A stretch of DNA of 64,000 bases, from NCBI GenBank assembly GCA_973895155.1, contig OZ316894.1, forward strand, positions 8,456,234 to 8,520,233, given 5' to 3'. Position 1 is the first letter of the stretch; every line of letters starts with the position of its first letter. Under the pieces are notes generated by a model. The model had not been told where the DNA came from. It worked only from the letters and a program-made list of their open reading frames with translations, and did no database searches. The translations under genes and the position numbers were made by a program. This stretch comes from Marsupella aquatica (Eukaryota; Plantae; Marchantiophyta). This document shows positions 9,664 through 39,132 of the stretch, one piece after another.

Positions 9664-10620
9664 ATTTTTTTATAAAAAGTTTTAACCCGCAAAAAACCCC
9701 ACGGGCAGGGCAAACAAGCCACACAGCAAAACAAGACAACTCCCTCTTGGGGGGGGAACACAAGGGGCACAAAAGAAGCCGTCACCAAGACAAACCAAAA
9801 CCAACAAGTCAGGAGAGAATAGCAGTAGCAAATGAGAAGAGGGGGTCCCATGTAAGGACCACAACTAAGACCTAATCACGCATTCTAATCCAATTGTGGG
9901 CACAGGGTCATCTACCAGTGGAAATACAGCCCCTGCCATCACTGAGCCAGAGCCTACGTAAACTGTCAATCCTATCTTTCGCCCGACACAACCGGGTGTT
10001 CTTTCTACCAGGGGGTGAGCATCTACTCACAACATTCAAGCTCTCAATAGCCTCAGAAAGCACTAGGCCCATATCAAATGTACGTCTACCACCTGCACTG
10101 AACATATGGGAGTTCCTGCCTAGCCACAACATCCATAAAATCTGTTGCAAGACAAATAGTTTGGCAATCTGCTCAGGGTCCCTCCCATAAGCAGAGTCCA
10201 ACAAAGTCAGTAGCCCCTGGCCGATAGGTAAGCCCAACTCACGTAAGAAGCAGTGGTAGAGTCCCCAGTACCTCACAGCAAATGCACACCCAAAGAACAT
10301 CTGGGGGATGGTCTCTAAGGAACCGCTACACACCTTGCAATCACCATTGCTCACACCAATTCTAAGTGCCCTAGCACCCGTGAATAGACCCCCAACAATA
10401 ATTCTCCAGATGAATGTCTTGCCCCTAGACTTGGACAATCTGTAGTGCGATGTTCAATTTTCAGTCTCGGGTGCCCTACAAGCTGTTCCTCTCCCCACAA
10501 CGCGCCTGCTGGATCACCGCAAATTGGAAGGCTAATTTTGGGTGAGCCAATGTTGGCTTGGAAACCCTTCTCCCCAACATGGGGCGGCAGATCATCAAGT
10601 AGCCTTCCAAAATCATGCAA
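9664..10620 (-). mobile_element. L1-type LINE 3' fragment (zf-RVT domain, 3' UTR, A-rich tail)
   Basis: ORF 9908-10438 KTFIWRII..GL.TG..CKVC..LETIPQMFFGC...RYW matches the RT zinc-binding domain. A-rich tail at ~9664-9677 on the minus strand. 5' limit is approximate. Confidence 0.75.
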
Positions 10621-10822
10621 CATAGAGCATCAACAACGCAGCTTCAAGTCCCGGTACAACTACTGCTCGATCATTGCATGTAGCCCTTAGCAGGAGCTGG
10701 GTCACCGCATGTAGCCCTTAGTAGCTCTCAAGAGCCGCATGTATTCCTTAGCGCCTTAGCAGAATGTCTAGAGAGAAAATTTGAACATTGAATGAGACCC
10801 TAAACTCTGGCAAACGATCCTC

Positions 10823-10857
10823 AACACAGTGACGGACCAAACGAGAAGTGTGACCAC
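10823..10857 (+). repeat. Left TIR of element A
   Basis: AACACAGTGACGGACCAAACGAGAAGTGTGACCAC, preceded by CCTC. Confidence 0.9.
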
Positions 10858-11168
10858 ACTTCTCATTTTGCCCACGGCGAAAAAAGTTTCTAAGGCAAAA
10901 AAGTCTTGGATATAGAATTAGTATTCCCCCTAAAAACTAGTTTTTCGGTTTCAAAAAATGGGAAAAATCAAAGTGAATATGAAGATGGGATACGGCATAT
11001 CCCATTTCGGATCCAACCGCGGAATTCCCCCCCAAAAAAACGAACGCAGTAAAAGTGCCAATATTGTTTTACCCATTAAGAATATTCTCAAACGATTCTT
11101 CTCAACGGTAACATTTAACTGACTGCGCTACAACTGCAGTCAAATACTAACCACGGTCAGGGAGAAAA

Positions 11169-11180
11169 CTATAAATAGGA
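11169..11180 (+). promoter_or_regulatory. TATA box of cargo unit 1
   Basis: CTATAAATAGGA followed by a pyrimidine-rich leader and donor AG|GTGAGA at ~11261; same layout at ~13390. Confidence 0.55.
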
Positions 11181-11289
11181 GATCCACGCTTGAAAATTTT
11201 CCGCTCATTTTTTCTCGCTCTGTATCCTCTTCCTCTCGACGAATGCCCACCATCTAACAGGTGAGAATCTTCATGCAAATGGCAAGGAC

Positions 11290-11945
11290 GAATCCTGAAT
11301 GGGATACAGCGTATCTCGTTTGGGATTCAACCTTCAAATGTCCAGTTTTTGTTTTTGTTTAGTTGAAAAAGGAGGTTGGATGCAAAGTGGGATACGGGGT
11401 ATCCCATATCGCATCCAACCTCCGAATATGAAGTATCTTGGCCTCCAAATGTCAAAACCTCAACGTTGAATGCGAAATGGGATACGGCGTATCCCGTTTG
11501 AGATTCACCCTTCAAATGTCCAGTTTTTGTTTCTCTTCAGTGAAAAAAGGAGGTTGGATGCAAAGTGGGATACGGGGTATCCCATATCGCATCCAACCTC
11601 CGAATATGAAGTATCTTAGCCTCCAAATGTCAAAACCTCAACATTGGATGCAAAATGGGATACGGCGTATCCCGTTTGGGATTCACCCTTCAAATGTCAA
11701 GTTTTTGTTTCTCTTCAATGAAAAAAGGATGTTGGATGCGAAGTGGGATACGGGGTATCCCATATCGCATCCAACCTCCGAATAATAAGTATCTTAGTCT
11801 CCAAATGTTAAAACCTCAATGTTGAATGCGAAATGGGATACGGCATATCCCGTTTGGGATTCAACCTTCAAATTTCCAGATTTGGTTTCTCTTTAGCTAA
11901 AAAAGGAGGTTGGATGCAAAGTGGGATACGGGGTATCCCATGTGG
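11290..11945. repeat. Tandem array of palindromes, 178-bp unit (90+88)
   Basis: GGGATAC-N3-(G/A)TATCCC cores at ~11301, 11389, 11479, 11567, 11657, 11745, 11835, 11923. Confidence 0.93.
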
Positions 11946-12102
11946 TATCTCCCTAGAGTTTTCTTGGCATGGGAAAAATCTTATGGATTGCTGATTGTTT
12001 CGTAGGCAAAGTTCAACTAAACACGCACTGAAGCTCTTGCTGCCTTTCAGTGACTCAAGCTTTTGCTTTCCTGGAAAAATGACATTTTCTCTTGTGAGTC
12101 TA

Positions 12103-12429
12103 ATGGCGGTCCAGAATCAAAACCGTGAGAAACGTGCTCGTCAATTGTATAAGCGATTAGTTGCACTCAAAGTTCTCCGTTTTGGATTAGGAGTGCTATG
12201 GACGGGAGGCGTGGATCCACATGATAGTTTGAATCCACTCCGAATAGAGTTTTGTGAAAAAAATGAAGACGGAGTTCCAATTCGGTCGAGGATATGTTTG
12301 AGTGGTTGTCTGCACTCTGTTAATTCTTCTTGTAATTATTGTCATGATGCCCGAAACAAATATCATCGATTAGCATATTTGTGTTGTCGGATTTGGAACC
12401 AAGATCCTTGGGTTAACTTATTGCGTTGA
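12103..12429 (+). CDS. Small Cys/His-rich cargo protein of unknown function
   Basis: Open frame after a TAG acceptor at ~12005; CLSGCLH..CNYCH..HRLAYLCC cluster. Confidence 0.4.
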   Translation: MAVQNQNREKRARQLYKRLVALKVLRFGLGVLWTGGVDPHDSLNPLRIEFCEKNEDGVPIRSRICLSGCLHSVNSSCNYCHDARNKYHRLAYLCCRIWNQDPWVNLLR

Positions 12430-12608
12430 ATCTTCTTGATTAGTGTGTAAGTGTTAGGTGAACGTTCTTGGTTCAAAAATTTTGTGAATATATTTTTCTT
12501 TTGATCAAAGAAATAAAATCAGTTTTTCCATCACTATTTTGTAGGTTGCTGAGAAAGTGCTCACCATCTCATTTATTACTCCAGGTATCCACTGTCTCTT
12601 ATTTTGGA

Positions 12609-13148
12609 ATGGCCGTCATTGAGAACCCTGTCTTTACAAGGTTAGCGATGTCATTCGACAAAGAGAAGAAACAAATTCAACAGAAAAGTGGCCAAAGGGA
12701 ATCCAGATTGCTTTTGGATGGACTTCCTGATGAGATTGTTGAAATGTTCATTTGGCCCATTTTGAAAGTTTGTTGTATAGAGGATGAATTTGATTCCTCC
12801 AAGAACCAAGCTGATGAAAGATTGATGCGATTAAAAACAATGGTGTGGCTTGGATGCACCTCCAAGAAATGGAACCAACTCGTAATTTGTACACGAGTCT
12901 GGGGTATTCTTAGACTAGCAAGAAGCCAGTTTGAGGAAGTAAATGAAATGCTAACAAGCATTCCCAATGGAAAATCCCTTCAGAATGTTCATATTGAAGC
13001 TTTTGTTAGGATGGAAACACCGAATCTTCCTCCAATCGATTTCTTAGGTTTATTTTCAAGGTCTGACCTAAATCGATTTCAAGAAGACTGGCACAATCTT
13101 GAGAAAGATGAGCAAGCAAGGCTCTTGGAAATGTATGGGGAAGCTTAG
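12609..13148 (+). CDS. F-box-like cargo protein
   Basis: LDGLPDEIVEMFIWPIL ... LGCTSKKWNQLV resembles the F-box consensus (L..LP.EI...I ... CK.W..L) with an insert. Confidence 0.55.
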   Translation: MAVIENPVFTRLAMSFDKEKKQIQQKSGQRESRLLLDGLPDEIVEMFIWPILKVCCIEDEFDSSKNQADERLMRLKTMVWLGCTSKKWNQLVICTRVWGILRLARSQFEEVNEMLTSIPNGKSLQNVHIEAFVRMETPNLPPIDFLGLFSRSDLNRFQEDWHNLEKDEQARLLEMYGEA

Positions 13149-13559: not shown

Positions 13560-14290
13560 CATTGTTGAATCCTGAGTGGGATACGCCGTATCCTCCTTTG
13601 CATTCAACTCTATTCTTTGCCCTTTTGTTCGAAGAATAGAACTTTTCAATGTTGAATACAAGATGGGATACCGCATATCCCATGTCGCATCCAACACCCT
13701 CTTTTTAGTATTCCATCGGAACCTCCTTGCTGTTTGTTGACTTTGAATACGAAATGGGATACCGCGTATCCCATTTCGGATTCAACTACATCTCTTTGGT
13801 CTTTTATTGTAGAGTACTAGAAATTCCTGATGTTTAGGGTTTAGCGCCTTTGCGGAGGATCATTGCACAAGGAGCCGCATTGGATGATGTTGGATACAAA
13901 CCGGGATACCCGTATCCCATTTCGCATTCAACTCCCTATTTTTTGTTGTTTGCATCAGACTAGGCAATTGTTGATGTTGGATGCGAAGTGGGATACCTCG
14001 TATCCCATTTCGCATTCAACTCCCTATTTTGCGTTCTTTGCATCGGACTCTGCAGTTGTTGATTTCGGATGCGAAGTGGGATACCTCGTATCCCATTTCG
14101 CATTCAATTCCCTATTTTTTGTGTTTTGTATCAGACTCGAGGCAATTGTTGATGTTGGATGCGATGTGGGATACCGCGTATCCCATTTCGCATTTAACTC
14201 CCTATTTTTTGTTCTTTGCATCAGACTCTCGGTAGTTGTTGATTTTGGATGCGAAGTGGGATACCGCGTATCCAATCTTGCATTCAACTA
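13560..14290. repeat. Array of palindromes (~87-91 bp spacing) in a probable 5' UTR intron
   Basis: Cores at ~13578, 13665, 13756, 13903, 13990, 14078, 14168, 14258. TATA at ~13390, donor at ~13522, acceptor TTTTACAG at ~14333. Confidence 0.9.
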
Positions 14291-14337: not shown

Positions 14338-14934
14338 ATGTTGAACAAATCAAAGTCGTCTGCTTCGACCAAATCTTCATGGACGTCTATCGTCGATGAG
14401 ATTTGGAAGAAGGACCTTTACACCGAGGAGAAACTCGTGAGGAATAGGTGGTACTTCAGGGATGCCCGGGCGATGGATATTCACAGAGCCTATGACGGTC
14501 TAGCGATGTGGTTGGTTATAGTTAAGGGTAAAGACCATTGCCATTATGGATTAGTCGTGGACACTGCGGAGGCAGATATCACCGACGCAAAAACCAAACA
14601 GTTGAAGAAGATTCCAATATACCTTTGCATTCTTCCGAACAATGACTTCATTGTAGTTGTCCTCAACTACGAGAAACTCGATCGGGTCTCGATGAACACA
14701 TTTCCTGATGACCCGATTTGCAAGCTAATTTTGGAAGTGTCAGAGATTGATGACTTTTCTTATTGGTGTTTGAAATTTGTCTTAAAGTCTTGGAGGGTTG
14801 TTGAGGATTTTACCAAGGTAGCATATAGGTCCGTCGTTGGAGCCGACTTTGGCGTCAAAGAGCGTTGTCCGGGTGACCGTGTTTTCTGGCAAGAGCATGT
14901 TGGCTCTTTTGAAGTTAACCTTGCATGCTCATAA
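14338..14934 (+). CDS. Cargo protein of unknown function (~198 aa)
   Basis: ATG just after the acceptor; uninterrupted non-repetitive frame MLNKSKSS... Confidence 0.55.
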   Translation: MLNKSKSSASTKSSWTSIVDEIWKKDLYTEEKLVRNRWYFRDARAMDIHRAYDGLAMWLVIVKGKDHCHYGLVVDTAEADITDAKTKQLKKIPIYLCILPNNDFIVVVLNYEKLDRVSMNTFPDDPICKLILEVSEIDDFSYWCLKFVLKSWRVVEDFTKVAYRSVVGADFGVKERCPGDRVFWQEHVGSFEVNLACS

Positions 14935-14937
14935 GTT

Positions 14938-15144
14938 CTACACTAAAATTAAAATGATAATTCTAGTAACAAGGGTAGTGGGTATTAAGAAAGGTTCAGG
15001 TGAAACTAAAATACTGTTAAACCCTACTTCACCATACTTGCGGACCAACACATCACGAAAATTAGTTTTCTTACGACATATGATCCTAATATCTCCAAGA
15101 GAAAATGAAACAGGAATATCATCCGGACTCCTATTCAGATCCAT
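14938..15144 (-). CDS. Small protein B (68 aa), homologous to 38541-38750
   Basis: PVSFSLGDIR...RKYGE.G...S.EPFL conserved with the element B copy despite DNA divergence. Confidence 0.8.
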   Translation of the reverse strand: MDLNRSPDDIPVSFSLGDIRIICRKKTNFRDVLVRKYGEVGFNSILVSPEPFLIPTTLVTRIIILILV

Positions 15145-15148
15145 GACT

Positions 15149-15364
15149 TCAATAAAGGACAAAGATAATGCACTCTAACTCCTCTCGGTACGACATCACT
15201 TGGTATATTATTGGCTCGTTAGAAACCATAACAACAGTTGCAAATTGAGCTCCAAAATGATAGGTTAGATGTTGCCTCATAGATGGTTTGTCTAAAAGAT
15301 GGACTCTAATCAAAAACGGATTACGAAGGGGAAGATCAGGGATAACTCTCTCTCTTGGATTCAT
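15149..15364 (-). CDS. Small protein A (71 aa), homologous to 38752-38985
   Basis: LPL.NPFLIR.H.L.K..M.QH.T.HFG..FAT.V..S.EPI.Y...C.IF.LY conserved with the element B copy. Confidence 0.8.
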   Translation of the reverse strand: MNPRERVIPDLPLRNPFLIRVHLLDKPSMRQHLTYHFGAQFATVVMVSNEPIIYQVMSYREELECIIFVLY

Positions 15365-15684
15365 GATGGCTCTCCTATTCCTTTGCTATCCGGGCCAAAG
15401 GACGCCCCACCCCTATATTCCCCAAAAAACCTTATTCCCTAAGGTCCCATCTATAAGTCTACCACTCATTCCTTTGCTATCCGGGCCAAAGGACGCCCCA
15501 CTACTATGTTCAAGGCACAAAAGAGCTTCACAACCTTGAATGATAAACACTGCGGAATGAGGAAAGAGTGTCACTCACCACTTTATTTATAGTGCACACC
15601 AAGAGGGCATGGATCAAGCCCAAGCACTTGGATGAAGGCCAAGTGGCAAACATCAAATACCTAAGAGTGTGCTAGTACTGTTCA

Positions 15685-15958
15685 TAGTTGGTGAAATTAC
15701 TTTTAGTAGGTGGAACTACCATGCATTGGTGGAACTACTGTGCGTTGGTGGAACTATTGTGCGTTGGTGGACCTATTGTGCGTTGGTGGACCTATTATGC
15801 GTTAGTGGACCTACTATGCGTTGGTGGTTCTACTATGCGTTGGTGGACCTATTATGCGTTAGTGGACCTACTGTGCGTTGGTAGAACTATTGTGCGTTGG
15901 TAGAACTACTCATATACATTGGTAGAACTACTCATATGAATTGGTGGAACTACTGTAT
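15685..15958. repeat. 19-20 bp minisatellite (GTTGGTGGA[A/C]CTA[C/T]TGTGC)
   Basis: About 13 visible tandem copies. Confidence 0.9.
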
Positions 15959-16141
15959 TCCGTTAATATAGCTAAAGAAGTTAATAAAGTCTAAATTTAA
16001 TAATCTAATTACTAAACTACTTATATAATCTATAACATATTAAAACAAACAATTTTTTTATAACTTAAGAGAAAATCACGACAGCGTCCTCTAAAGTTGA
16101 AAGTGACGAATCCTATCGATCCGGCTTCAAAGTCATGGGAG

Positions 16142-18743
16142 ATGTCTGGAACACCCTCGATAAAGGAGAAATCTGCCACAGTTTCTTTTAAGGAACCGGC
16201 AAAAAGGAAGCTTGCAGATCAACTCTCCGGGGAAGGTCCTAAAGCAGCGGTGTCAGGCGAAGCTGCTGGCAAGAAGAAACTGGATCGACGTAACATCCAG
16301 AAGCGAGCACCATCTGCACCCGAAAGTGTTGTCTCATCTTTGGTCCCAACAATTTCACAAACACCGTCTTAGATTCCTTCAACTTTGTCAGGTGGGCCTT
16401 CTCTATCATCTAGGGGTGCTGTGAAAGAAAAGAAAAACAATTCAACAGATATCACCACAGCTTTGCAGCGGGAAGAGACACTTGTGGTTCGTGAAGAAGT
16501 GTCTCAGTTGATGGAGACCAAGAGAGTTCAGAAGACAACTGTTATTCTGAAAACAACTAACCTGCTTCTTGTTGATGATTTTGACGACAAGAACTAAATG
16601 TTGGTTCGAACAGTAGATCGGTTGCATGTAGAGAACATCAAGACTTTGATGAAAATGAATCCAATAAATTTCACCACGCCATTTGTCTTGTTTGTGATCC
16701 CCAAAGATTGCCCGACAGTGACAGACTGGGACCCAGAAAAGGCAACGAGCTGGAGATATCGAGTGATTGGAGGTAATCACGGTGCTCGGGCTAAGAGAGA
16801 ATTGTATCAGGCTTATGGGAGAGAGATCTTCAATGAACTCCAAGCTTGGGTGTATGCTGGTCTCACAAGGGAGGACATTCAGAAACTTAGCATCCAACAT
16901 AATATTGATCAGGAGTACAAGAAAAAAATGAATAACATTGATCAAATCCGAACAATGCATAAGATTTTCCTTGCCAGAGGTATGGCAAAAACCAAGGAGA
17001 CTAGAGAAGCGTGTGCGATGGAGGTTTGCCTCGACGGGTTTTTTCTGGGGGACGCCACAAGCCTAAGGAAGCATGAACCTCTCTTCCAAATTGCGTTTAG
17101 GTTGGGTAAGGTCTGGGAACTCCAAGACCAGATCTTTGAGATGTGGAACAAGTTGGAGATCAAAGGGCAGAATAAGCAGAAGTCACCGATCAAGAAACTG
17201 AAGAAAAAAGGGAAAGCACAGTCGATTCCAAAAGCTTTGAATAAGCTTGTAGGGGGCCTTACCCTGACACCTTGGAGAGCAATCGAGGGAATTGAACACG
17301 ACCGATTTTTGGAGTCCCTTCTTCTACGAGTGAAGGACCGGATGATCTCTTTGGAGCAGATGGCAAAAGAAGCCGAGAGTTACAAGAAACTTGTGAAAAT
17401 CAACAAGCTTTTTGTTCAGTTATCAGGGCAACCAGACTGGGCGACTTGCAAACAAATGTTTCCGAAAGAAACAGAATCTGCCGAGCTTGAAAGATGGAGT
17501 GGGAAGTTGTCCGATGTGGTATGTTCTCCCCTTCCATTGATTGGACTTTTCTCGGATTCACTTGTGTTTATTTGACGTTTGTGATATTTCAATGAGGTTT
17601 TTGCTTGGTCAAATGCGAAGTGGGATACGGCGTATCCCATCTCGGATTCACTTGTGTTTATTTGACGTTTGTGATGTTTCAATGAGGTTTTTGCTTGGTC
17701 GAATGCGAAGTGGGATACGGCGTATCCCATCTCGGATTCACTTGTGTTTATTTGACGTTTGTGATGTTTCAATGAGGTTTTTGCTTGATCGAATACGAAG
17801 TGGGATACGCAGTATCCCATCTCGGATTCACTTATGTTTATTTGACGTTGGTGATGTTTGAATGGGGTTTTTGCTTGGTTGAATGCAAAGTGGGATACGG
17901 GGTATCCCATGTCGCATTCGTCGTCCAGATTTGATTGTTTGAATGCCCAAATGGTTCTCCCCATTGTCTTTTCTCTGGATTCTTTTAACAAGTTTGCGTT
18001 TGCAGTTGAAAGCTTTTTTGAAGAAGAAGAACAAGGATGCAATTGGTGCCGATGCGGTTGAGAAGCCTTCGGAGGAGCTGACTTTGAGTGTTATTCCCAC
18101 GGAGTTTAAGAATTATGTTCAAGAAGCGATTGAGAACTACAACCGTCGTCATGGGATTGAAACGGTTGAAGCGGAGTTGAGTGACCATCGATGGAAAAAC
18201 GCTGATGGAAATTTCATCAAATATACATTGCATTGTGGAGATGTCAGGGCGCTGGATAAGTTTGTAGAGAAAAGGAATTACACACTTGCAATTGCAGACA
18301 TTCCCTATGGATTCAATGCGCCTGGCTCTGAAAATGATGAGCTCCCATTTTCAGAGAGTGATATTGTAGATATGGTGAAGTGTTTTGCCAAGGTGACAAG
18401 TTCAAAGATATGGAGGTTTGTTGTGATTCACTCTTTGCAGCAAACTTGGTCTATGATGAATGCCTTGGGAAAAACTTGTAATGCAGGTGTAGAGGCTGGA
18501 ATTTGGGAGAAGCCAAATGTACATGCTCATCCTTCGGGGAATCGATTGGCTTGGGCTTTTGAAAACTGGTCAATCGGATATTATCACGAGAGTGGTATTA
18601 GGACCAGAGACATGTACAATTTTGAACATGATGAGAAAAGGGTAAACATCATAAAAGTCCCTTGTGTTACAAAGAAATGTGTAACACCATTGGGGGAAAT
18701 AGTGAACCCTTACCAGAAGCCGATAGCTCTAGCAGATTGGTTC
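16142..18743 (+). pseudogene. ParB/Srx-like domain fused to a beta-class N6A/N4C DNA methyltransferase (2 exons; two in-frame stops; 3' end lost to a Gypsy insertion)
   Basis: Exon 1 (16142-17518): VRTVDRLHVENIK..M ... YRVIGGNHGARA, ParB-like. A GT-AG intron at 17519-18005 joins the exons in phase 0. Exon 2: LHCGDV..L..., LAIADIPYG (motif IV), IWEKPN, NPYQKPIAL. Confidence 0.78.
17551..17915. repeat. 4 x 90-bp tandem repeat carrying the palindrome, inside the ParB-MTase intron
   Basis: Units start CTCGGATTCAC at 17551, 17641, 17731, 17821. Confidence 0.95.
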
Positions 18744-18857
18744 TGTGATGCCTAGCCAGGAATCACTCGGCCAGTTAAGTGGGTAAAGCAGGAGTGCACC
18801 CTAGAAACACCTTAGTATAGGGACAAACAAGGGAAATATAAACAATTAGGGGCGACT

Positions 18858-21800
18858 ATGGAACCCGGGCCGAGGCCGGAGGTAAGGACGCTGGGGGTGA
18901 AAATAAGATTAGGGTTAGGGCGCGCTAAGCGTTGGCGACTAGGAAGGATCAACGGGAGGAAGGACCGGAAGAGGAGAGGGGTAAGGAGCGCTTGCAGGGA
19001 ATGGTGGCTCATTTGCGAGCACGAACTAGGCAGACGACTACGGGAGGCCAACTACTGTCAACTGCTTAGGCAAGCACTCGGGGAGAGAGTAGATACCGAC
19101 GATGGACCTAAGGAGGGTATGAGCAACGTCAATCAAGCGGCACATTTCTGGGGATGCCTGTTCGAACGGGCAACTGAGTACATCAAGACTTACGGGGACG
19201 AAGAATCAGAAAGGGCAGCTCGAGAACGGCAGGAGCTCGCTCGATTGTGGGAGCTGCAGAAGACGGCTTTCTTAGGAGGCGAACTCATCAAGGCCGAGTT
19301 CTTGTGGACTCCTACTCCCAATCAGCTCGACGATCTTCTGTTTTGCGAAGATAGAGTCGTCGGCATCCGAGAAGCCATCAAACGCTGCAACAACATACAC
19401 TGGGAGTTGAAGGGTAGCACGGAGGGGTGGACAAAGGCAACCGTGCTAGGAGAGACATCCACGGGAACCAAAATGAAGAGGAAGGGAGCCGTCAACGATG
19501 AAACCACCCCGGCAAAAAGAACGAGGTCGGCGGCACCAAAGAAGCCAGCCGAGCAGCAGAGCAGGAGGCAAGGAGAAGCTGAAAAGGAGGAGGACAATCC
19601 CATCAATGCCATTCCAACCAGGGATGACACCTGGAAAGGCTGGGCGGCAACCCTACCAGAGGAGGTGCAACTACATTTTGCACGGGAGGAGAATGCATGC
19701 TTTACGGCCATGCAGACCAAGAAGTACCAAGGCTTCATGGCCGGATCCGGCTTAGAGGCCTTTGTAAGATTACCATGGCTGAAGCCGGAGGTGCCGGATT
19801 CAGACCTATTAGAATTCGTGGGGTCATGGGAACCCAAGACCAATTCCACGAGGATATATGGGAAGGATTTCTATCTTACTCCCAAGGTGATTGCCAAAGT
19901 GTTTGGCTTGCCGATAGGCAATAAGACCAAAGTTGATACCAGGAAGACCCTGCCTGACAAGGAGTTCCGGTCGTTCCCCGGGCCATCAACGAAGAATGGC
20001 TTCTTCCGGAACACCTGCACCAACCCGCACATAGGAGAGATGATCGACTTCTTGCAAGTGACCATGCATTGTAACTTGCCGAGGGCAGAGATCGGCAAGG
20101 CACAGGTCTATCTGGCAGAGAGGCCAGACCTAAGTCGGGACTAAAACGGGTACCTCCTCAACCAATTGAAGAAGATCTTAAAGGAGGAGCAGCAGGTAAT
20201 CGGCCTAGGGAGCGTGTCGCGGCTTGGCTATCACATGCCGCTGTTGTGCCGGTATGCCAAAGGTCAGACCTTTGCCCCAGTACTTCCCCTGCAGGTATGG
20301 GCACCCGAGGAAGCTCCAGCACCGAGGCCGGTAGCAGAGAAGCCTCAACCACCTGTTAGCCCTACGATTGAGCAGGTGTTTAGGCCAAGGAAGGAAGACT
20401 TGCCGATGCAGCAACCAAGCATGCAGAATTTGCTGAAAATGCTGGAGAAGGAAAAGACGGCACTGGCACCAGCTTTGGCAGCGGCACCAATACAGGACAC
20501 TGCCCCAGAGGTCAACCTAAGCAGACTTAGAAGGGAAAACCCCTTTACCAGAAATAAGGAGAGAATCAGGCCAGAATCCAAGCCGGGTGTTCGAACGTAC
20601 GTGGGAGTCTCAAGCTTTGAATCTGAGGCAGAATTGCCTGAAGCTCCTACCGGCGAAGAGGAGAGGGAGAAGCCGGAAGTCCAAGAGGTGGAGGCAGTGG
20701 AGGACTGCAGCCATGATAACTCCGGCTATGGGTCGGACCATCACGTTCCAGGAGTAAGGACCTGTGGCCGGTTTATCCCCACACTTCCAAGGGTAGTTCG
20801 AGGGGACCCCAACTAGCAGAGTAGCCCCGAGTCTCCCCCACCAGATGTTGCTCTCCCGAGCTTTGACGGCATAAAGCAGACGGCACAGGAATTTCAGGAG
20901 CGACTTAGGGAAGCAGAAAAGGCAGCCCTGGCTAGGGAAAAGGATTTGCCAGGAGGAGATTGGCCGGAGGACATCAGGCGGCTAGCCAAAAAAGGAAGCA
21001 AACCTCTAGCCACGATTGAAGAGATCCGCAAGACGGCTTGGGAGCAGAGGCCGCGATGGGCGATGCCGATCACTTCTACTTACTCCACCTACGCTAAGAA
21101 TAGAGCCATGGAGTATGGTGAGATATGTGGGGAACTTGCGCTCGGCATCTTTGGGGAGGAGTTGGAGGTAGGACCCTTTTTCCATAGGGAGCAGTTGGAG
21201 AAGCACCAATTAGAAGAAGCGGTGGCTTTAGAGAGAAGCAAGAAGGACGAGGTCATCCGGCGGCTTAGGAGGATGGAAGCCGAGATTGAAGATCTAAGGG
21301 CGGCCAAGAAAGCCCAAGATGAACTGCGGATTAAGCGGCATGAGCTGAACATCATGCAGGGGCAGTTGGACACCGCGCAGGCTGATAATCAGATTATCAA
21401 GGATAAACTGACTCAGACCCAGGGAGAATTGGCCGACGCAATCAAGGATAGGAAGAAATGGAAGAAGGAGCTGAGAGACGCAGAGGAGGCCCATATAGCA
21501 ATCAACAACCAGGTCACGGTGGAGACTCAGAGAAGGGCGAGGGCGCTGAAGGAAGAGCTCGAGGTCATCCGCAGAGCCCTTGAGCAGAAGGAGGCCGAGT
21601 TAGGGAAATCCTATCAAGGGATTGTTGCGCTACAGCAGGAGCTTGCGTCCCTGACGGCCAGCTTCAAGGCCGACCTGCGGGAGAAGGACGCCCAGTTCGA
21701 CCAGACTTATGCCAAGATGAATAACATGGAGTCTGAGGTTGTAGCGGAGCTCGACAAGGAGCTAAGAGCAACCCAGGAGGAGAGGGCTACCACCAAGAAG

Positions 21801-22199
21801 GAATTGGAGGAAGCCCACAGGGAATTGGAGGAAGCCAAAAACGAGCTGGAGGAGGCACGTAAGGACCTGGATGAGACCCAGGAGGAGTTGGAGGAAATCA
21901 CGAGGAAGATGGAGAACCTACAGCGGCGGGCCGACAACCAAACAGAGTCGCTGAAGAAACAAGCCGCAGTATTTAAATGCTTAGCTGCATCAGGTCCATC
22001 TCCCGTTGGGGCAAACCAGTTACCCAGGGTGGTAATTGCCGAAGGACCAGCCGTGACACACGGCCCGGTGCCGGACATTGGCGGCAAGGGGAAGGAACCG
22101 GCTATGGAGATAGTGAAGAAGAAGAAGCGGAACCTTCGGGGTCTGGAGGTTATTCGACCCCTCAAGCCGTACTCAAACCGGTACCAACCTCCGGCATGA
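18858..22199 (+). pseudogene. Long accessory ORF (~1100 codons, same frame, with stops): plant-mobile-domain-like region and coiled coil
   Basis: ORFs 18858, 20166 and 20946 are in one frame. GLEAFVRLPW...LTPKVIAKVFGLP, then heptad-rich EEA/ELE repeats. Confidence 0.7.
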
Positions 22200-23409
22200 A
22201 CACGACAATAGATCCCGCTATCACCAAAGGTGGGGATGGCGCGGCCCAAGCCGAACTACTCAGTAATGAGGCCGGTATCCCAGATCCATCTCTTGAGCAG
22301 GCCGGGGAGGCCGTGGCCGAAGCTGAGGCCGTAGCCGAGAATGATTTCTGAGCCGAGGCCGAAGCCGAGGGTGGGCCCAGTCAGGCCGATGAAAAGTTGA
22401 CTCGGTCAGAGGCAGGAATCTGTCAGAGGACGGACCAACAACAGTGGTTGCGGAGGGAGCGTTGGGGGCGCCCATTGAGGATCCACCACCGGTGTCGTGA
22501 CGGTGCAAGGGCGTCGTTCCTTTTAGGAAGGGCGGACGTGGAGGGAGGAGGCGTGAGTGGGCAGAGCGGGCTCAAATCTCTAAGTTTAGGATTAGGATCA
22601 GGACCAGGAGGCGGCCCTGACACTTAGCTTAGTGGGATTGCGGTTCCACTGGTAAGAGCAACACTTGTACTTCTACCTCGCTGTACATAGGTAGATCCAG
22701 TTAGGTAGATTAGGCTTACGCTGCAAAGGATTAGGCGGATCCACTACCAGGATAAGTACCTGGGCAGCGGGGAGCTCAGGGCCTCTTCTTTAGCAAGTTT
22801 TTAGTTGCACCAGCCGGGCTGGGATCAAGTAGTAAGAGAAGCTCTCGGTTAGTCATACAGTGACCTTTGTGTATATTCATGTTTCCTCATGCCTAAGAGC
22901 TGAATAGAGTTGGCCTCACGGCTTAGTTCGCAGAGCTTGTGTATGAGATGTACTGTTTGTATGGCAAGTGCATGGTATGACTCAGTCAGAAGGAGTCATT
23001 TTGCTAATTGTGTGTCGCATTAACTTGTGTGAAGAGTGCCCACATCAACCAATAGAGGAAGGAAAGTAAGCAGGGGAGTGAGAGTTGGATGTGTCGAGCT
23101 GAGAGAGGTCTTAGCGGCTTAACCAAGCCTATTGGGGATCATTATGGCGGCGGAATCCAAACATACCTAACAAGACGGAGGGGAAGACAAGGGAAGGCCT
23201 AGATTAGGCCGGCTACGTATCTCATGACCCGATGAAGGATCTGTCCAGTATATGTGTGTAAAATGTTAATAGTAGTAGTAGAAGGAGGTTAGCAGCGTCC
23301 CATGCCGCTAAGCCGCGGAAACGGCCTCGCCAAACGCGAAACCTGCGGGAATCAGCTTGCGCTGGGGGGGTTTCTTGGGTTTAGGGAGCCATGGGACGCA
23401 CCACATTTT

Positions 23410-23428
23410 TGGCACTAGATGGAGGGGG
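23410..23428 (+). other. Primer-binding site
   Basis: TGGCACTAGATGGAGGGGG 4 nt after ...CACA and ~50 nt before the gag ATG. Confidence 0.7.
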
Positions 23429-23474
23429 CATTTCTTAAGCCGTGAGATATGAAGTTAGAAAGGAAGCATAGGTA

Positions 23475-25760
23475 ATGACTGACCTTACGCCGAGGGAAGA
23501 AAGAGTGATTCAACGGGAGAGAGCTCGACTACAGCAGCTCGCCGGGTGGCATGATACACAGCGACTGAGAGGGGCAGAAAGAGCTGGTAGCTCCGTAGCT
23601 AGAAGTGGCGTTGAAGAAGACATACCAGAAGAAGAGTCGATAGGAAGAAACGAGTACCCAACCGACATGGGGGAACCAGAGGCACGGCCAGACGAGAGGC
23701 CAGGGACCAGACTGAGCCAACGGTCACGCATTCATTACAAGGCATTTCATGGGAGAGGAGATGAGGATCCGGACGAATGGTTGGATGATTTCGAGGGAAC
23801 CGCTGCAGCAAATGGAGAATCGGCCATCAAGATGCAGATTCTTCCCGGCCTGTTCAAGGGTGAGGCTAGGCCTTGGTACAGAGCATTGGATGTGGAAGAT
23901 CAAGCCATCTGGGATATCTTCAAAACACTATTTGTTAAGGAGTTTCGACCCATTGGAACTTCAGAACTAGCAGTGCTGAAATTGGGACGACTTCGGTTCA
24001 AGGAGAACAAATCCTTTAGGAAGTTCTTGCAACGCTTTCAGAAACTGGTAAGACGTACAAAGACCAATGCATCTGAAGGTATGCAACTTCAATGGTTGGT
24101 GAATGCTTTGCCATAGAAGATGAGTTTTGCAATTAGGAAGGAGAACCCGGAGACCTTGGCCGAGGCAATTAAGGATATTCAATTATACATTAATGCAGAT
24201 ATCACAAGCCGGAAGAAACAGCTTAAGTCTGAGAGTTCCTCATCAGAGGAAGGATCACCCCATAAGAAAAAAGATAAGAAGAAGAAACATTCTAAGAAGT
24301 CAAGAAGTGATAACTCAAGCTCGGATAGTGGAAGTAGCAAGAGTGAGTCATCTTCTAGTTCTGAAGAAGAAAAAACTAGGAAAAGAAAGGCCAGAAGGAG
24401 AGGGAAGATGAAAGTGAAGCTGGAGGCTAAGCCACCAGATAACATCGTGGCCCTTACCGAGCAACTTAAGGCTATAATTGCAGAGGTAAAGCCGAAGAAG
24501 AAGGTAGTACAGGAGGATAGCTCTGTATGGTGTGTCTTATGTTATAAAACCGGACACCATAAAGATGCGTGTCCTAAGCTCAATACTAGTCATGTTCGGC
24601 ATGTGGCCGAGATCAGACCATGTCAGGGAGAAGTAGAGTACTTTCTAGGAGATGCCGCTGATAGTGTTTTCGGCATCAGTGAGACTGGAGCACGAGACCT
24701 ATCCAACAGACCTGCATCTCTGTGGTCAGGATTAAGGAACAACCCGGGAGAGATGTATCCTCGAATTATTCAGGACCCGTCGGTACCTCCTAGGCCGAAT
24801 GTGCAAAGATTTGTGGCATGCTATAATTGTGGTCAACCTGGCCATTTTGCTAGAGAATGCCCGAATGCACGCAAACAAGGTGATGGACAACCAGCTCAGC
24901 TATGTATGGGATGTAGACAGGAGGGTCACATGCTAGGACAATGTCCTACTTGGTTGGTAGGCCTGGCCGCAAATCATAAGCTCTTGCCAGTTAAGGTCTT
25001 ACCGCCAGATATTACCCCCGGAGGAGTTCAAATCAACCACATCGAACTAGGATGGCAAGAGGATGCCGAGGCAGAGTTCGTACCATTTGATGATGAGGCC
25101 GAAGCCCTATCAACCTTCTCAGAAGAGGATTTAGATCATGATTGCTACCGGGTCTCTACTCGATCTACCAGAAGGAAGGAAAGGTGGGATGGGCTAGCCA
25201 AAAATAAAGGGAAGGTTAAGGAGGAAAAGATCGACTCTTCGTCAACATCAACGGAAGGAGAAGGAAGGGCTCCGGCAATACAGGTAAGCCATGAGCCCAC
25301 CAGTGAACCCAATCCTTCACAAGATAGCAACTTCAATCGAGATCATCCTAAGTTGTTCTACCCCTCTGTTACGGCTAGTGTTAAGGAACAACTGCGAGAA
25401 TTAGAAACCCTGGAGAGTACTGAAGCCATAGCCAAGGATATGAAACGAGCAAAAGCATTGTTTGCTTCGGAGGATCCAACAGCTGTGGGGACTAGCGTGA
25501 AAAAACAGGCCGAATCCAAGATAGAGACACCACTGGAGAAACCGATAGTTCCCTATGACCTGGCTAAAGATGTACTAGAATCTAGAGTCTCGGCAACAGT
25601 AGGTCAACTACTGAAAAATAGCCCGTACTTCCGGAAGCAATTAAGGAAGGCTATTCTCGGCAAGCCGAGATTACCCAAGGTAGCAACCAAATCCGACGTG
25701 CTGATGATAGAAGAAGATCAAGGAGCCCCAGCTTTACCATTAATGATTCAAGGAAGCTTT
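23475..25760 (+). pseudogene. Gypsy gag (one in-frame stop, truncated)
   Basis: FHGRGDEDPDEWLDDFE, FKGEARPWY and three CCHC knuckles; homologous to the gag at 7684-9311. Confidence 0.9.
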
Positions 25761-25799
25761 ACCATAACTTTTATTTAGTTCAATTATTAAACACTTTGG

Positions 25800-26024
25800 A
25801 CTAACTTTAAGATTCTTTCTCAAGTACCTCAACAACCAAACAATTCAGATTGTGGTCTTTTTGTTCTTCAAAATATGGACGAAATCAGAATTCAATGGCA
25901 TATTACACAATGCCTTGATGCACAGTCTTTATTTACCGAAAAATGGTACAACTCTAAAAGAGCATGTAACCTTAGAAAATTCATTCGAGATCAAATTCTA
26001 AAATTGATGCATGTACCTGTTTAA
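25800..26024 (+). pseudogene. ULP1/C48 SUMO-protease C-terminal remnant
   Basis: Manual translation (not in the ORF track): SQVPQQPNNSDCGLFVLQNM...KWY...NLRKFIRDQILKL*, the catalytic Q/C motif of peptidase C48. Confidence 0.8.
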
Positions 26025-26035
26025 GGACATCAATC

Positions 26036-28826
26036 TCAATCCTCTGAAGGTGAAGAACCTCGCTCTAATATAGCAGACTCTATAATCTTTTTAGTTTTTG
26101 CTGTTATTTGATTAGTACTTAAAAGCGCAAAGTTGTATGCATACACCGCTGTTGATGATAAAACTAGTTCATCTTGGAGAAGTCGATTAGATATATTATC
26201 TTTCTCTGGAAAATATTTCCCATCAATAGCAGACTCAGCACTTGCCTCAGTTGTGTACCATGTGATTTTGATTCTCTCAGGAATGTCTGCAGTTCTTGTC
26301 AAAATCTTTGACACCTTTGCCATCCAAAACAACTTGCCTTCTGGATCCTTGTGTGCCTCTACACATATCATGGACCACTTATTGTTAACTTCCATATCTC
26401 TGAAATCTCCAAATTTAGCTTGCTTTCGTCGAGGTCCGGAGTACATAATTCTCTATGGTCCAGCAACTTTGTCAACCAAAGTTGGATCAACACCTTCTTC
26501 AACAAGTTCATATTTCACCCTTCGAAGTGTTGCACCTTGATTTTATTGCGGCCAAACCCACTCAAATAACCACTCACCTTCCTCTAGGTGGTTTTTGATA
26601 ATATCTTTTTGTTTCTAAAAAAAACTCATCCACCAAAGTTTGTCTTCATTGTCAAAGTAATTGAAAGCTTCCTGAATAGCTTTTTCATATTTCACCAGAG
26701 TAGTTAACGCACCATCTGTATTGGAAGAATCATGGACATCATCCCTCTCAACACCTTTTGCTGACTTTAGTGACATTTGTGCAGCAACCCACATTCTTGA
26801 AGTTGGAATGTAATTAACAAACGTCACTGCATCTCCCCAATCCTGGGTCGTGGAAAGATGTTTCCCGTGAAATGTTGTCTGTTCGTTTCCATCCTCCATG
26901 ACTCGTTTGAATCTGAATTGCCTTTGAAAAGTTATGAGAGATCTCTCAAGACTCTACCTGAGACTCCCTTCTCATTTGGCTGGTCGGTTTCATTGACAAA
27001 TTTTCAAAAATTGGCTACTTCATCCACAAATATGATCAAAGCTTCAGGGGAATATGCTCATCGAATAATATCCTCAAGAGTCTCCAAGCGAAATGCTTTG
27101 TGCTTGTTTAACCTAGATGAAAATTTACTAAACATCTGATCTATCTGGTCATGTGTATGACCGACCAACAAGAAACCCACTTTAATCTTGTCAAAAATCT
27201 TCAAATCTACTAACATGTGAAGATAAGCCATCAAGAATTTATTCTTGTTTTCCCTAGTGGTATTATCTAATTGAAGATATAACACTCTTGGTAATGTCTC
27301 ATCCCATGTATTCAATACATTTTGAATAACATGTATTAATGGTCAAGTTTGCATCATTATGGATATTGGGATATGTCAAAAATACTTTTGCTGCAAGGTT
27401 CCTGTTGAAGATGAGACAACCTACAACATGTATTGGAATGAAATATTTTTCATCCATATTCTTCGGACAACGAAGAAAATGTGGTAGCTCTGTTTTCTTT
27501 TGATCCATACCATCTATACAAATATCCAAATACTTGTTGGGTTCATCATAGCATTTTTTACGATGGCTAACTTCATCCTTTCCAATGATTGTACTTTTCG
27601 ATGCTCCATAAGGGCATTGATGTACTTTCTTGAAATGATACAATAACAATGAATCAAAAATCAATAACTAAGGATAAACTTTGACAAATATTGAAGTACA
27701 TCATGTCATCAAATTAAAGTTGAAGGTTGTAGTTAGTGGTGCTTACTTTTATCCTCTTCAATTGTTGCTTTGTCCCGAAGAGCCTTGAATTCAGTACAAG
27801 GACCACAAGTAGAAAATCGACTCCTTTTAGGTATTCGTACATTTGGAAACTTTTTTTTTCCAAACACGCAAAAAAATAAGAATATGTAACTTGTTGTTCT
27901 TCTCGCAACATTGTTTCAGCTTCAAAGATTCCATGTATCTCTTGCTTTGTCCAATTGTCTGGCAAGTGATGAATCTCTTTATGGGGAAGACTATCCATAT
28001 TTTTTTGGAAAAAATATTTCAACCATTCCACCAGGTTTAAAAATGAAGGTGAGTCTTCCTTACAAAAGGTATCTTGTTCAATCCTTGTAAACATGTTTGC
28101 ATGGATTGTTGTCAATCTATTATTACCTAAAGAATATAGTTTCTTGAATCCTCCTCTACATATAGGTTGTCCATTTACACTATATCCACGAGAAGTACTA
28201 CTACTGTTCATGATACAACCTCGTAGCAAAATATTTTTCTGCAAGTGTTTAAGACCAAAATAATACTTGCATTGTTTTGAGCATTCCTCTAGACCCAGAG
28301 ACCTCAAACAAAACTTGTCACAACAGGGATACTTAAAAATATCTTTAATTTTGCATTTTCTTAGATTTGCAATGGTAAGTCTATCTTTTCTAATCATCTG
28401 ATCTCTGATTTTTTTGCTGGGTCTTGTCACCTCTACTCTATCCTAAATAGTGTCGGGAGAACTTACCCCCTCACTATTTTCTAGTGAATTAGAATTCAAA
28501 ACAAAAAGATCTTCTGTAGAGTTGTTTCCACTCTCCACATTTTCTATAACTGTTTCATGAACAATCTCACATCCCAGGATCTCTTCCACAACATTTGAGA
28601 TTATAGCAGTCTCTCTGTCATTTGCAGCCACCTCTGATCTCTCTTCAGAGTCTTCTGAAAATGTAATAGGTGTTCGGAGATTTCTAGTTTGAAATCTTCT
28701 AATGATATTCACATCTTCAGTCGCAGTACCGCCCACTTGTCTCTGAGACTGTAATCCCAGCCTAGGTGATTCTTCTCGACTTGAGGGCTCATCTTGACCA
28801 TTGAATAATCTTTGGACAAGTTTCAA
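26036..28826 (-). pseudogene. Sola-like (DUF7869-type) DDD transposase of element A, fragmented
   Basis: CCDKFCL, ICRGGF; CIDGMDQKKT (D1), LYLQLDNTTRENKN (D2), FLLVGHTHDQIDQMFS (D3). Confidence 0.82.
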
Positions 28827-29029
28827 TTTAGCATGTACCCTTGAATTTTTGGGCCCTCTCTCCGGCAGCTCACTTCACAACAATCTCCGAGGAATTTTTT
28901 GGACACTAGATATCTTCCCTCTTCGTTCTGCACTTGCGGTCCAATGGAAGATCCAAAAACCTCACACTGCATCCTCGCCAAAGGGCTTCGAAGCCCAATG
29001 TTGTTAGTTTGACCATTCGGTGAAATAAC

Positions 29030-29410
29030 AGATGGGAATACCGGTTGGGATTCATGGATCCCAACTCGTATTTGTCCTTCGGGACTTCGAAGTGAAAACT
29101 TTCCCACTTGCTATTCTGCGTCATGACTTGGCAATTTTCCATTGCGCAATACAAACTTGGATCCACGTATCCCATTTCGCATTCCACCATCAAAACTCGG
29201 GTTGGAAGTCCGCAAGACCGGTGACTCGGGCACAGGATTCTGCAAAATACCACGAGGGAATACTAAGTGGGATCCATGGATCCCACTTCGTATTTGACCC
29301 ATGGAATTTGGTATTGAAGGAGACAAAATAGGCAATTCGCGTTCACCGTTTCTCAACATTCAAGTAGGGAATACCAAGTGGGATCCCACTTGGTATTCGA
29401 CCCACCATAT
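29030..29410. repeat. Variant palindrome array (GGGATCCATGGATCCC-type, ~111-bp spacing)
   Basis: Cores at ~29047, 29158, 29269, 29380; more copies at ~30274, 30345, 30434. Confidence 0.8.
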
Positions 29411-29471
29411 TTGGCTCCGAGGCTGCCCCTCCCTGCAATTCCGGCACATTTGGACTCCTCATTCGCTCAAA

Positions 29472-29912
29472 CTATGATTGAACACTGGACACAGCTATCT
29501 TCACTCCCGGAGAATGAGACATTGGAAAAACCAACGGAGATCTTCGGGCGGGCCTACATGGTAACGTTGTTCTTGGCATTAAAAACCGGGGCCTTCGTCT
29601 TCGAAGATCTGTCGGGGTTCGCGGAGAACCAGGTATCTCTGTCGTAGGAACTACATTAGGCTTCTTTACAAGTAGACGTCGTTTAAGAGGTTTACTTGGA
29701 GAGACATAGTATGAAATCGGAGCACCCACAACACTCCTACAAGACTCTAAATCGGACTCTGATTTCTCAGATTCTGAGGAAAATGAAATCTCTGGCACTA
29801 CTCTCTGTGAGGCTGGTAATTCATTCATCAAACGAGATGGAATAAATTTTTGAACAACATCTGGCGAAGATGCATCTGAACTGTAAATTGATTCATCAAT
29901 TGAAGACGCCAT
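29472..29912 (-). CDS. Ser-rich ORF, probable first coding exon of the transposase unit
   Basis: ATG downstream of a minus-strand CTATAAAAG (~30064-30072); exon end uncertain. Confidence 0.45.
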   Translation of the reverse strand: MASSIDESIYSSDASSPDVVQKFIPSRLMNELPASQRVVPEISFSSESEKSESDLESCRSVVGAPISYYVSPSKPLKRRLLVKKPNVVPTTEIPGSPRTPTDLRRRRPRFLMPRTTLPCRPARRSPLVFPMSHSPGVKIAVSSVQS

Positions 29913-31000
29913 AGAGAATCAAACAAGGGTTGTATAGGAGTACGTATTCCTATCCAACAGAGATACTTCAGATTACAGTATTCTATGAAAACAACTACTC
30001 AATAGTGAACAAACCTCAAAGTAATCACGAGAAATGAAGATGAAAAACAAATGCGAGCTCTTCCTTTTATAGTTTTCGGGGGCATTGTACATGTGGCATT
30101 CCCTGATTGGTCCGTACGAGGGTTTTTTCAAGTGAGAGTCTATCTTTTCCAGGACTGCTGAAATTTAAATTGTAGATTATTGAGGAAGTCGCCGTGGATC
30201 CGAGTTGGTCTTCAAACTGGAATATCAAGGTATGCGATGCAAAACTTCAAAATGTAGAGGTTGAATACTAGATGGGATCCATGGATCCCATTTGGTATTC
30301 ATCCTCCTGTTTTCCCGATGAGTTTTTGGACTTGCGAAAAAAATGGGATCCATGGATCTCAGTTGGTATTCATGTCGAAAGATCTCCTGATACAAAGTTG
30401 CAGGTGGAAAACATTGAGGTTGAATACGAGAGTGGATACTTGGATCCTGTCTCGTATTCATCATGCGCTATGGGCTAAAAAAATTCCGAACATGTCGTCG
30501 GGTTAACTTAACTAACTGTGTGGGTCGACTATAGTCTGCGGTTAGTTTTTTGCAGTTTTCCGGTTTACCGCAGTTAAAAATTCAAATATTTTTAACCCGA
30601 GGTTAAATGGAAGCATCAAGAGAATGATTTGGTGTGGTTTTCGTCCACGTTCAATAGTTGAATCCGAAATGGGATACGCTGTATCCCAATTTTAGTTTGC
30701 CATTTTGAAGGCAAAAATGAAATCTTGTGTTTTCTTCATTTTGTTTGACTCTCGGATTTAGCTTTTAGAGGATCACGTGAAAAGCATTGTTTTTCTAGGT
30801 TTTGGAATTTGCCCTTTTTTTAGATGAAGTGTATCAGAATTCTGGATTGTAACAATTCTTTGTTTTTGTGTCGACAGTATCTCGATTTGAAATCCGATGT
30901 TGGATGCGATTTTGGATTCATCCTCAAAATAGCATTTTCGATCTTAATTTTAGTGTTTTTTTGCCATTTTTTGCGAAATTGAAAACACACTTCTCGTTTG

Positions 31001-31035
31001 GTGGTCATACTTCTCATTTGGTCCGTCATTGTGTT
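31001..31035 (-). repeat. Right TIR of element A
   Basis: Reverse complement AACACAATGACGGACCAAATGAGAAGTATGACCAC, followed by CCTC. Confidence 0.9.
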
Positions 31036-32227
31036 CCTCTTGTCGCAACATTTACCAGCGCACAGTACAACCTAAACCCAAGACATTGTCCTCAGCATGT
31101 CTGAACATCCTCAGCATCACTCTCGATGATCCTCTCCTCTCAATGCAGTGTAGCACAGCTTTGATTCCAATCAACCACAATCTATCAACATTGGGTGCAA
31201 TGGCTCCCTAACTTGTTTCCAGGGAAATCATGAGCCTCGCCTCGCCTCCCATCAGCGATGCAGTGGGGTCCAGATAATGGGTACGCTTCGCCTCCCATGA
31301 GTGATGCAATGGGGTCCAAATAATGGGTACACAATAAGTTCTCCCTACCCTCACACCAACGTAGAGTTTTTCTGTTCTATAATCGGGTAAGGTGTCAGGC
31401 ATGTGCAGTGCCAGCAAAGTCATACTAAACCCGGTCCCTCATAGGTTTGAGGTCCCACCAAGTCATTTTGGACTTTTTGGGACTTGTTAAGTCGGTAGCT
31501 TTCAAGCGAGACCCCACCAAGCAAATGCCTCGGATTCAACTTAGTTTGGGTTTCTTGAGTTTGATTTAGTCAGCCTAGTTAAAGTAGGCTAAAGGTAAGT
31601 TTGGCTTAAGACAAAGGTAGAGTATCATTCTATTTTCTCTCATGATTTGGAACACAATTTGAGCTCAAACTTTAGCTCTAGATTTCCTTTATCTCATAGC
31701 AAATTTTCAGCCTATTTGGTTTAAAGAGGGACAAAATGAAAAGCACCAAATCATAGTATTCATTAAAACTAGAAATTTAAAAGTCCAGATTGTGATCCTC
31801 AAATTTACATTCTTGTCTCTAAAAAGTCCATTAATTTTGCTCCAAATAAACAATTTTGCAAGACTAAATATACACTCTTTTTGGTTTAAAATTACACTTT
31901 TGCGCTCCAAAATTTGATTTTAATCAATTAATCATAATACAGAAAATATTGATATTAATTATATTTGAAATTAAATAGATAAGTGACACACATGTATCAT
32001 TTGGTCAAAACTCATGATTAAATTCAAAGTGAGATTAATCATCTCATTTATCATAACATATATTCAAGGTTGGCTAGCCATAATGTCGATCCTACTCCAA
32101 TGGTCAAGCTAGTATAAAGTCCAATGTAGTTCTATGACCTGTGAAATAGAAAAATGATTGCATGACTCCAATCTTGTGTCCTACAATGTACAGAAACATA
32201 ATGATTAATCATCTAAAATTTCAAATT

Positions 32228-33232: not shown

Positions 33233-33558
33233 TTTAGGAGTGAAATCTGCAAAGATCCAAATGAATCAAAATTATATCTAAAAGCTAATAAAGAAGAACT
33301 TAGGATCAAACCTGGATCGACCCGACCTAATGGGGAAAACAAACATATCATTTTTGAATGTCAAAGCATTTTGATATATCAATGTAGAAGTACCTTGCTC
33401 AAATGTTTTGTCTTGGACCAGGGTACCGCTTGCTGAAGGTAGACCAATAATATCCTTCAATGGAAGAGATGCTATGACAAAACTTTGGTCTGTCCTATAT
33501 GATTTCCAAACATAATATTTTAGATTATTGTGAAAAATAGAAGAACGAAACCATAGTA

Positions 33559-38750: not shown

Positions 38751-38751
38751 C

Positions 38752-38985: not shown

Positions 38986-39132
38986 CTAATTTTCATTCTA
39001 ATGACAAGAGATAGAATCATTCAACAAAAAAATCATTCATTTCAAACAAATATCATGCATTGAGTTAACTCTAAGTATATACATGCATATATTTATCTTA
39101 ATAGGTTGATCTTCTCTTGAATGAAAATACTA

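Follow-up and report, generated by a model that had tools for sequence, protein, structure and literature searches.

A transposon-borne gene joining ParB-like and predicted beta-class amino-methyltransferase domains in the liverwort Marsupella aquatica

A gene in which a ParB-like half is fused to an amino-methyltransferase half raises the questions of what carries it in a liverwort, what its product would bind and which base it would methylate. In the available part of one survey, adenine methyltransferases are said to be few in land plants (PMC4738411). The gene lies in a 64,000-nt stretch of Marsupella aquatica DNA, hereafter the window, to which all coordinates refer. In this window the fused gene stands within an element that has matching ends, a transposase on the opposite strand and palindromes confined to the element, and both folds are seen in the predicted model of a homolog, P0019. 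We propose, with a probability of roughly 0.55, that the intact protein binds the palindromes of its element and writes 6mA there, a mark that would identify the element as self.

The fusion gene and its homologs

The preliminary description of the locus recognized a ParB-like/beta-class methyltransferase fusion with an in-phase splice, and this assignment stands. All five of its motifs are found on the plus strand (IGGNH at 16766, CGD at 18234, ADIPYG at 18294, IWEKP at 18501 and NPYQKP at 18705), and the two exons that carry them are separated by a predicted phase-0 GT..AG intron (17519..18005, plus strand), whose donor GTG/GTATGT at 17518/17519 and acceptor TTGCAG/TTG at 18005/18006 are predicted from sequence. 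The window contains a single DxP(Y/F)..QKP frame, and 0 of 100 codon shuffles contain one. The family profile A1 matches exon 1 at positions 38-380 (E 2.5e-106) and exon 2 at positions 369-597 (E 1.2e-63). Because exons 1 and 2 were themselves rows of A1, the independent test of the splice is whether a single protein matches exon 1 and then exon 2, which was the case for 21 of the 187 proteins compared (two of them form one cluster). Eight of 11 donor-side homologs, a set selected for matches ending near the donor, stop at query residue 305-308, and Val stands at the donor column in all 8 homologs printed in full. This selected set suggests that the intron position may be conserved across homologs, and we infer from these matches that exon 1 is spliced to exon 2.

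The frame is longer than first described: it begins not at 16142 but at 14338 and, with an interrupting solo LTR discounted, 900 codons run on. Its 5' part (14338..14865, plus strand) encodes an N-terminal region with no Pfam match and is in frame with the sequence from 16088 onward once the LTR is removed. The LTR itself (14866..16083) has TG..CA ends and a 4-bp duplication, GCGT, and contigs skip 14861-16082 in 4 of 4 runs. The remainder of exon 1 (16088..17518, plus strand) encodes a low-complexity linker with stops, the ParB/Srx-like domain and a helical region, while exon 2 (18006..18743, plus strand) covers the predicted beta-class amino-methyltransferase as far as QKP, starting at its CGD strand and including motif IV (DIPY), and ends just before motif I.

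This copy of the gene is dead, as was stated at the outset: the exon 1 frame has premature stops at 16370 and 16595, the solo LTR interrupts it and motif I is missing from the window copy by deletion. The loss of motif I had been ascribed to an insertion. Motif I is indeed gone, but a deletion probably took it together with the 3' part of the neighboring nested Ty3/Gypsy-type LTR retroelement (18744..25754, plus strand), which starts with TG and encodes gag with a zinc knuckle. The retroelement breaks off near 25754, its 3' part missing, and the C-terminal fragment of a ULP1 (Peptidase_C48) gene follows (25794..26024, plus strand, E 1.6e-5), so one later deletion probably removed this part along with the end of the methylase. 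At 18743, contigs of run X3 diverge from the window and stay in frame toward motif I, with sequence that resembles the stretch preceding it in the homologs; motif I itself is present in full-length homologs, as had been anticipated for intact copies.

Searched alone, the window exons gave no relevant sequence match in Pfam, PHROG or PDB, and a single-sequence fold of window exon 2 was poor (pLDDT 36). Exon 2 alone also had no PF01555 match in Pfam, so that homologs, structure and a language-model search are the grounds for calling it a methylase. When exon 2 was used to look for longer proteins, an indexed search returned none; exhaustive search did recover fusions, and exon 1 used in this way gave 156 matches with E up to 0.001. 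A species name was attached to 19 of the 30 homologs looked up, and the named ones include the streptophytes Chara braunii (4), Riccia sorocarpa (4), Adiantum nelumboides (4) and Ginkgo (2) as well as the animal or amoebozoan genera Exaiptasia, Actinia, Ptychodera, Branchiostoma and Clastostelium. Eight further Chara loci were found beyond these four. No angiosperm or Marchantia protein was among the 19 named homologs, a small sample, and contig scans of viral and metagenome collections found no relatives.

Most family members are truncated or degenerate. The PF01555 cut-off is passed by 8 of the 27 long homologs scanned, and of the 42 rows of the family 8 combine DxPY, QKP and motif I; these come from Chara, unnamed contigs and a gene model of a fern. 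No animal or amoebozoan member with a species name has DxPY; together with the many degenerate members, this indicates that the methylase can go while the gene persists. The gene model of P0007 (Chara braunii GBG86584.1) comprises two tandem ParB-methylase units, the second with the full motif set.

The element and its palindromes

The element is 20.2 kb long (10823-31035), with 35-nt inverted ends and CCTC on both sides. The left terminal inverted repeat (10823..10857, plus strand) starts with AACAC and agrees with the right one (31001..31035, minus strand) at 32 of 35 positions; the target-site duplications CCTC stand at 10819..10822 and 31036..31039 (both plus strand). Tail to tail with the fusion gene lies a broken DDE-type transposase gene (26036..28874, minus strand, extent approximate) with a DUF7869 domain at ~26992-27463 (minus strand, E 1e-36), which may correspond to the Sola transposase. 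The inverted ends, the CCTC duplication and the transposase on the opposite strand bear out the earlier suggestion that the gene is transposon-borne. Terminal inverted repeats and a 4-bp target duplication are present as in Sola1 transposons. The target preference given for Sola1 in the portion of the source at hand is AWWT (PMC3845634), from which CCTC, a single site, differs; because this one target site lacks AWWT, the element is called Sola-like here and is not filed as Sola1. Many differing contigs span all 30 bins in 4 runs from 2 studies, which fits a multi-copy family and implies no copy number.

Between the left end and the fusion gene, the element contains a short ORF (11995-12429, plus strand) with a Cys/His-rich C-terminal end and a 228-aa cargo ORF (12462..13148, plus strand), both with no Pfam match. 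A LINE remnant (zf-RVT, E 6.6e-7) lies on the minus strand of the left flank at 9900-10822. The right flank at 31040-31400 (minus strand) had no Pfam match; it may be the upstream part of this LINE, which the element may have split.

Three arrays of the 17-bp palindrome GGGATAC-N3-GTATCCC, with a spacing of ~90 nt, stand near the left end (10987..11939, 9 matches, mostly 88-90 nt apart), upstream of the fusion gene (13578..14274, 7 matches, ahead of an acceptor-like AG that precedes the ATG at 14338) and in its intron (17622-17908, 4 matches). Near the right end, 29047..30687 holds variants of 16 bp, GGGATCCATGGATCCC, together with a single 17-bp copy at 30671. With the pattern GGGATNC-N3-GNATCCC and 1 mismatch allowed, all 21 of the 21 matches in the window fall inside the element, vs. 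0.12 expected by chance, and half-sites number 48 inside the 20.2-kb element vs. 6 in the other 43.8 kb. By analogy, the palindrome is a candidate binding site of the ParB-like half.

Predicted folds, target base and competing readings

Both folds were predicted for the homolog P0019, which is 31-32% identical to the window protein and was modeled full length from a 95-row alignment (pLDDT 82). Residues 525-766 of the model align with CcrM at Z 23.1 (rmsd 2.8, 219 aligned), and a Foldseek match reaches E 2e-12. For exon 2 of the window, the top match in the ESM Atlas is an N6_N4_Mtase cluster (score 0.95). The motif order in the homologs is permuted, i.e., IV, QKP and then I, so the catalytic motif does precede QKP and motif I, as had been read from the incomplete window copy. 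Judged from the model, the C-terminal domain of the homolog is a beta-class amino-methyltransferase with a permuted Rossmann fold.

The N-terminal part of the P0019 model matches PadC at Z 9.7 (rmsd 3.2, 100 aligned), with further Z-scores of 8.5 for KorB, 8.2 for SerK, 7.7 for sulfiredoxin, 7.0 for SbnI and 5.5 for Spo0J; the match to a Pnob8-like ParB (Z 9.2, rmsd 5.2, 209 aligned) covers residues 91-440. ParB Z-scores of 8-10 are modest, as the typical background of the tool is 7-8; six ParB/Srx-fold proteins (Z 9.7 to 7.0) nevertheless occupy ranks 21-26, directly behind the methylases. These modest yet coherent matches predict a ParB/Srx fold for the N-terminal part of the homolog, and with the Rossmann methyltransferase fold both halves proposed in the preliminary description are recovered in the P0019 model. 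The helical region aligns loosely with the central parts of ParB/Spo0J proteins (rmsd 5.2-5.3; KorB 9.7). An ESM Atlas row for PF02195 at 0.92 is a lead only, and no ParB family is among the 25 Pfam families listed for members of alignment A2. Conservation in this half is high (G in 112 of 121, G in 114 of 121, H in 113 of 120 and N in 115 of 119 members). ParB proteins bind double-stranded DNA, and in ParB CTPase clamps the Arg of GxxR belongs to the nucleotide motif. The motif in this family is GGxH(S/G/T), GGNHG in the window copy, and Arg follows His in 5 of 117 members; because this arginine is mostly missing, the ParB half is probably not a CTP-hydrolysing clamp.

Based on these folds, we propose that the ParB-like half and its helical neighbor would bind the 17-bp palindromes of the element, in analogy with ParB-parS, and that the beta-class methylase half would methylate adenine at or near them. 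The adenine mark would label the copies of the element as self, and its purpose would most likely be to shield the element from silencing by the host or to control its transposition.

The preliminary description held that the element may deposit 6mA or 4mC. The fold cannot tell these enzymes apart, because the Z-scores of the P0019 model are alike for PvuII (19.6), N4CMT (19.2) and RsrI (19.5), and in the accessible part of one report the methylase domain is said to have switched specificity repeatedly and domain structure not to fix specificity (PMC8885841). Motif IV begins with D in 38 of the 41 members and never with S. Of the canonical pattern (D/N/S)PP(Y/F/W), for which the window copy reads DIPY, the family has P2 in 8, P3 in 34 and Y in 20 of 41, and the scarcity of the second-place Pro weighs against the proposed activity. 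N4C enzymes are described, in the portion of the source available, with S at this position (PMC4738411), and Marchantia DN4MT1 has TSPPY and clusters with N4C enzymes (bioRxiv 2021.02.12.428880, available in part). The family profile matches the 6mA enzymes RsrI (5.9e-15), CcrM (4.6e-13), DpnA (1.1e-12) and MboIIA (7.9e-12), vs. 3.4e-4 for N4CMT and 0.05 for PvuII, so that both N4C enzymes trail each of the four best-matching 6mA enzymes by 8 or more orders of magnitude. Because motif IV starts with D in nearly all members and with S in none, 6mA is favored over 4mC as the predicted product. It is accordingly improbable, in our judgment, that the enzyme makes 4mC and that plant N4C enzymes, DN4MT1 among them, arose from this family or were carried by it, as had been suggested: the beta-class fold is common to PvuII and N4CMT, several viral structural neighbors are annotated as N4C methyltransferases and the family does occur in a liverwort, but these points face the motif IV and profile results and the lack of Marchantia among the named homologs.

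A different possibility, which we regard as real though rather unlikely, is that the protein is mainly a DNA-binding helper. It would bind the palindrome arrays and hold together or protect the two distant ends of the element, and its methylase half would be a dispensable or dead dimerization module. The residues of the ParB half are well conserved while motif IV is degenerate in many members, the palindrome arrays stand near both ends as well as in the intron, and a second paralog, also in the window, reads DFSR and NFFSGG where the motifs should be and yet occurs in other copies. The full motif set is nevertheless kept in the 8 of 42 rows noted above, and in full-length homologs motif I retains D in 18 of 25 and its glycines in 18 of 24 and 25 of 27, more than would be expected of a long-dead enzyme. 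Least probable of all, and very improbable in itself, is that the gene is a passenger without a role in the element or that its product methylates single-stranded DNA or RNA and not the duplex of the element; it would have to be squared with the double-stranded DNA binding of ParB, with the confinement of the palindromes to the element and with the same cargo in the same orientation in a brown-algal Sola1 element. DpnA-type enzymes are found among the beta-class relatives, and eukaryotic acquisitions are described as having often moved to RNA, in the part of the source available (PMC4738411), both of which would suit such a role.

A bolder reading, which we consider doubtful if worth stating, is that an old 6mA writer carried by transposons runs through the streptophytes, from Chara to Ginkgo. 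Each element would encode a ParB-guided methylase that recognizes its own palindrome and methylates adenines on its own copies, and land plants would thereby harbor a self-marking epigenetic system for which host methylases are not needed. Matched pairs of ParB and palindrome would then diverge by family, and the window would contain two such pairs, one with a dead enzyme.

Known systems and a second locus

The novelty implied by the preliminary description is overstated, since the same cargo in a similar element has been published for Ectocarpus and related cargo for red algae. In the available part of its description, Sola1-1_Ec32 of Ectocarpus is 21.5 kb long with AACCG ends and a 4-bp duplication and encodes opposite its transposase a 1104-aa protein with ParB-like and N4/N6 methyltransferase domains; the proposal made there is that this protein binds and modifies the element that encodes it (PMC12477816). 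The M. aquatica element, likened to it by description, is also a ~20-kb element with terminal inverted repeats, a 4-bp duplication and ends starting with AAC (AACAC here), and also has a fused ParB-methylase gene, of more than 900 codons, opposite the transposase. The host is a liverwort and not a brown alga, the inverted repeats are 35 nt here vs. 282 nt there, a ULP1 fragment and a further ORF are part of the cargo, and palindrome arrays are mapped here. As far as that description reaches, the design is already published and the present element would work like Sola1-1_Ec32. New here are the streptophyte homologs of Chara, Riccia, Adiantum and Ginkgo, known as protein sequences, the members with complete catalytic motifs and the mapped candidate binding site. 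A literature search found the cargo undescribed in land plants or Chara, a weak absence because most subscription papers were outside its scope.

PAG2 and PAG3, accessory genes of Plavaka elements in red algae such as Bostrychia, are in the part of the preprint at hand PF01555-SET and ParB-2OG oxygenase genes (bioRxiv 2025.02.11.637652). Their elements too are giant DNA transposons that combine a PF01555 methylase and a ParB-like domain with arrays of inverted repeats, which are proposed there as binding sites; in contrast, ParB and methylase are two genes there and one protein here, and the transposase is of the EnSpm/Plavaka type there and of the DUF7869 type here. Like DN4MT1 of Marchantia and N4CMT of bdelloids, the family adds a prokaryote-type beta-class amino-methyltransferase to eukaryotes (bioRxiv 2021.02.12.428880; PMC8885841; both available in part). 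Those are, by the same accounts, host genes shown to make 4mC, and N4CMT is fused to a chromodomain, whereas this family has DxPY, the ParB fusion and, here, a transposon location. The permuted fold and motif order are shared with CcrM, M.BceJIV, M1.HpyAVI, M.RsrI and M.MboIIA; unlike in bacterial and phage 6mA enzymes, the first Pro of motif IV is mostly replaced and the gene is spliced. Phage methylases are about 21-29% identical to the family in the rows shown, and one phage match is a ParB-annotated gene near a terminase. Since the phage sequence matches, including this ParB-annotated methylase, cover the methylase half alone, descent from a phage fusion is not supported.

A second, distant gene with ParB-like and degenerate methylase-like parts lies at about 34418-36300 on the minus strand. 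It contains DFSR, NPHAKP and NFFSGG, of which DFSR and NFFSGG stand at motif positions, is broken by indels and has apparently lost part of the ParB domain by deletion near 35761. Its region (~31770-36990) is spanned by long contigs of run X2, and the gene is present in other copies. A homolog of this gene matches the ParB half of the family by hhalign at E 9e-5 (probability 59), and the motif IV and QKP regions of the gene itself match the family weakly; HMMER with A1 or A2 did not detect the gene, and P0186 had no significant match to A1. Near it is a different palindrome, GGGTCGCTC-N3-GAGCGACCC, with 5 matches (36962-37085, 34142 and 41462) and 0 expected, and related half-site repeats, GCCCCTAGAGCG, are found at 36895, 38433-38460 and 40062-40259. 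A second broken DUF7869 transposase (41534-43400, plus strand, E 1.4e-18) may be paired with this gene in a divergent layout; a search of the window for the ends of such an element found none.

Adjoining the second ParB-like gene is a NIF-type phosphatase gene with a stop (32355-33221, minus strand, E 7e-7), which is probably cargo. A probable second solo LTR (38473-40042), related to that at 14866-16083, ends with CACGACA ahead of GCGT, and both solo LTR insertions are in a GCRT-like context. The sole likely host gene recognized in the window encodes a WRC domain, which is plant-specific, at 56502-57566 on the plus strand, and a 1-kb stretch at 58001-59000 has a G+C content of ~7%.
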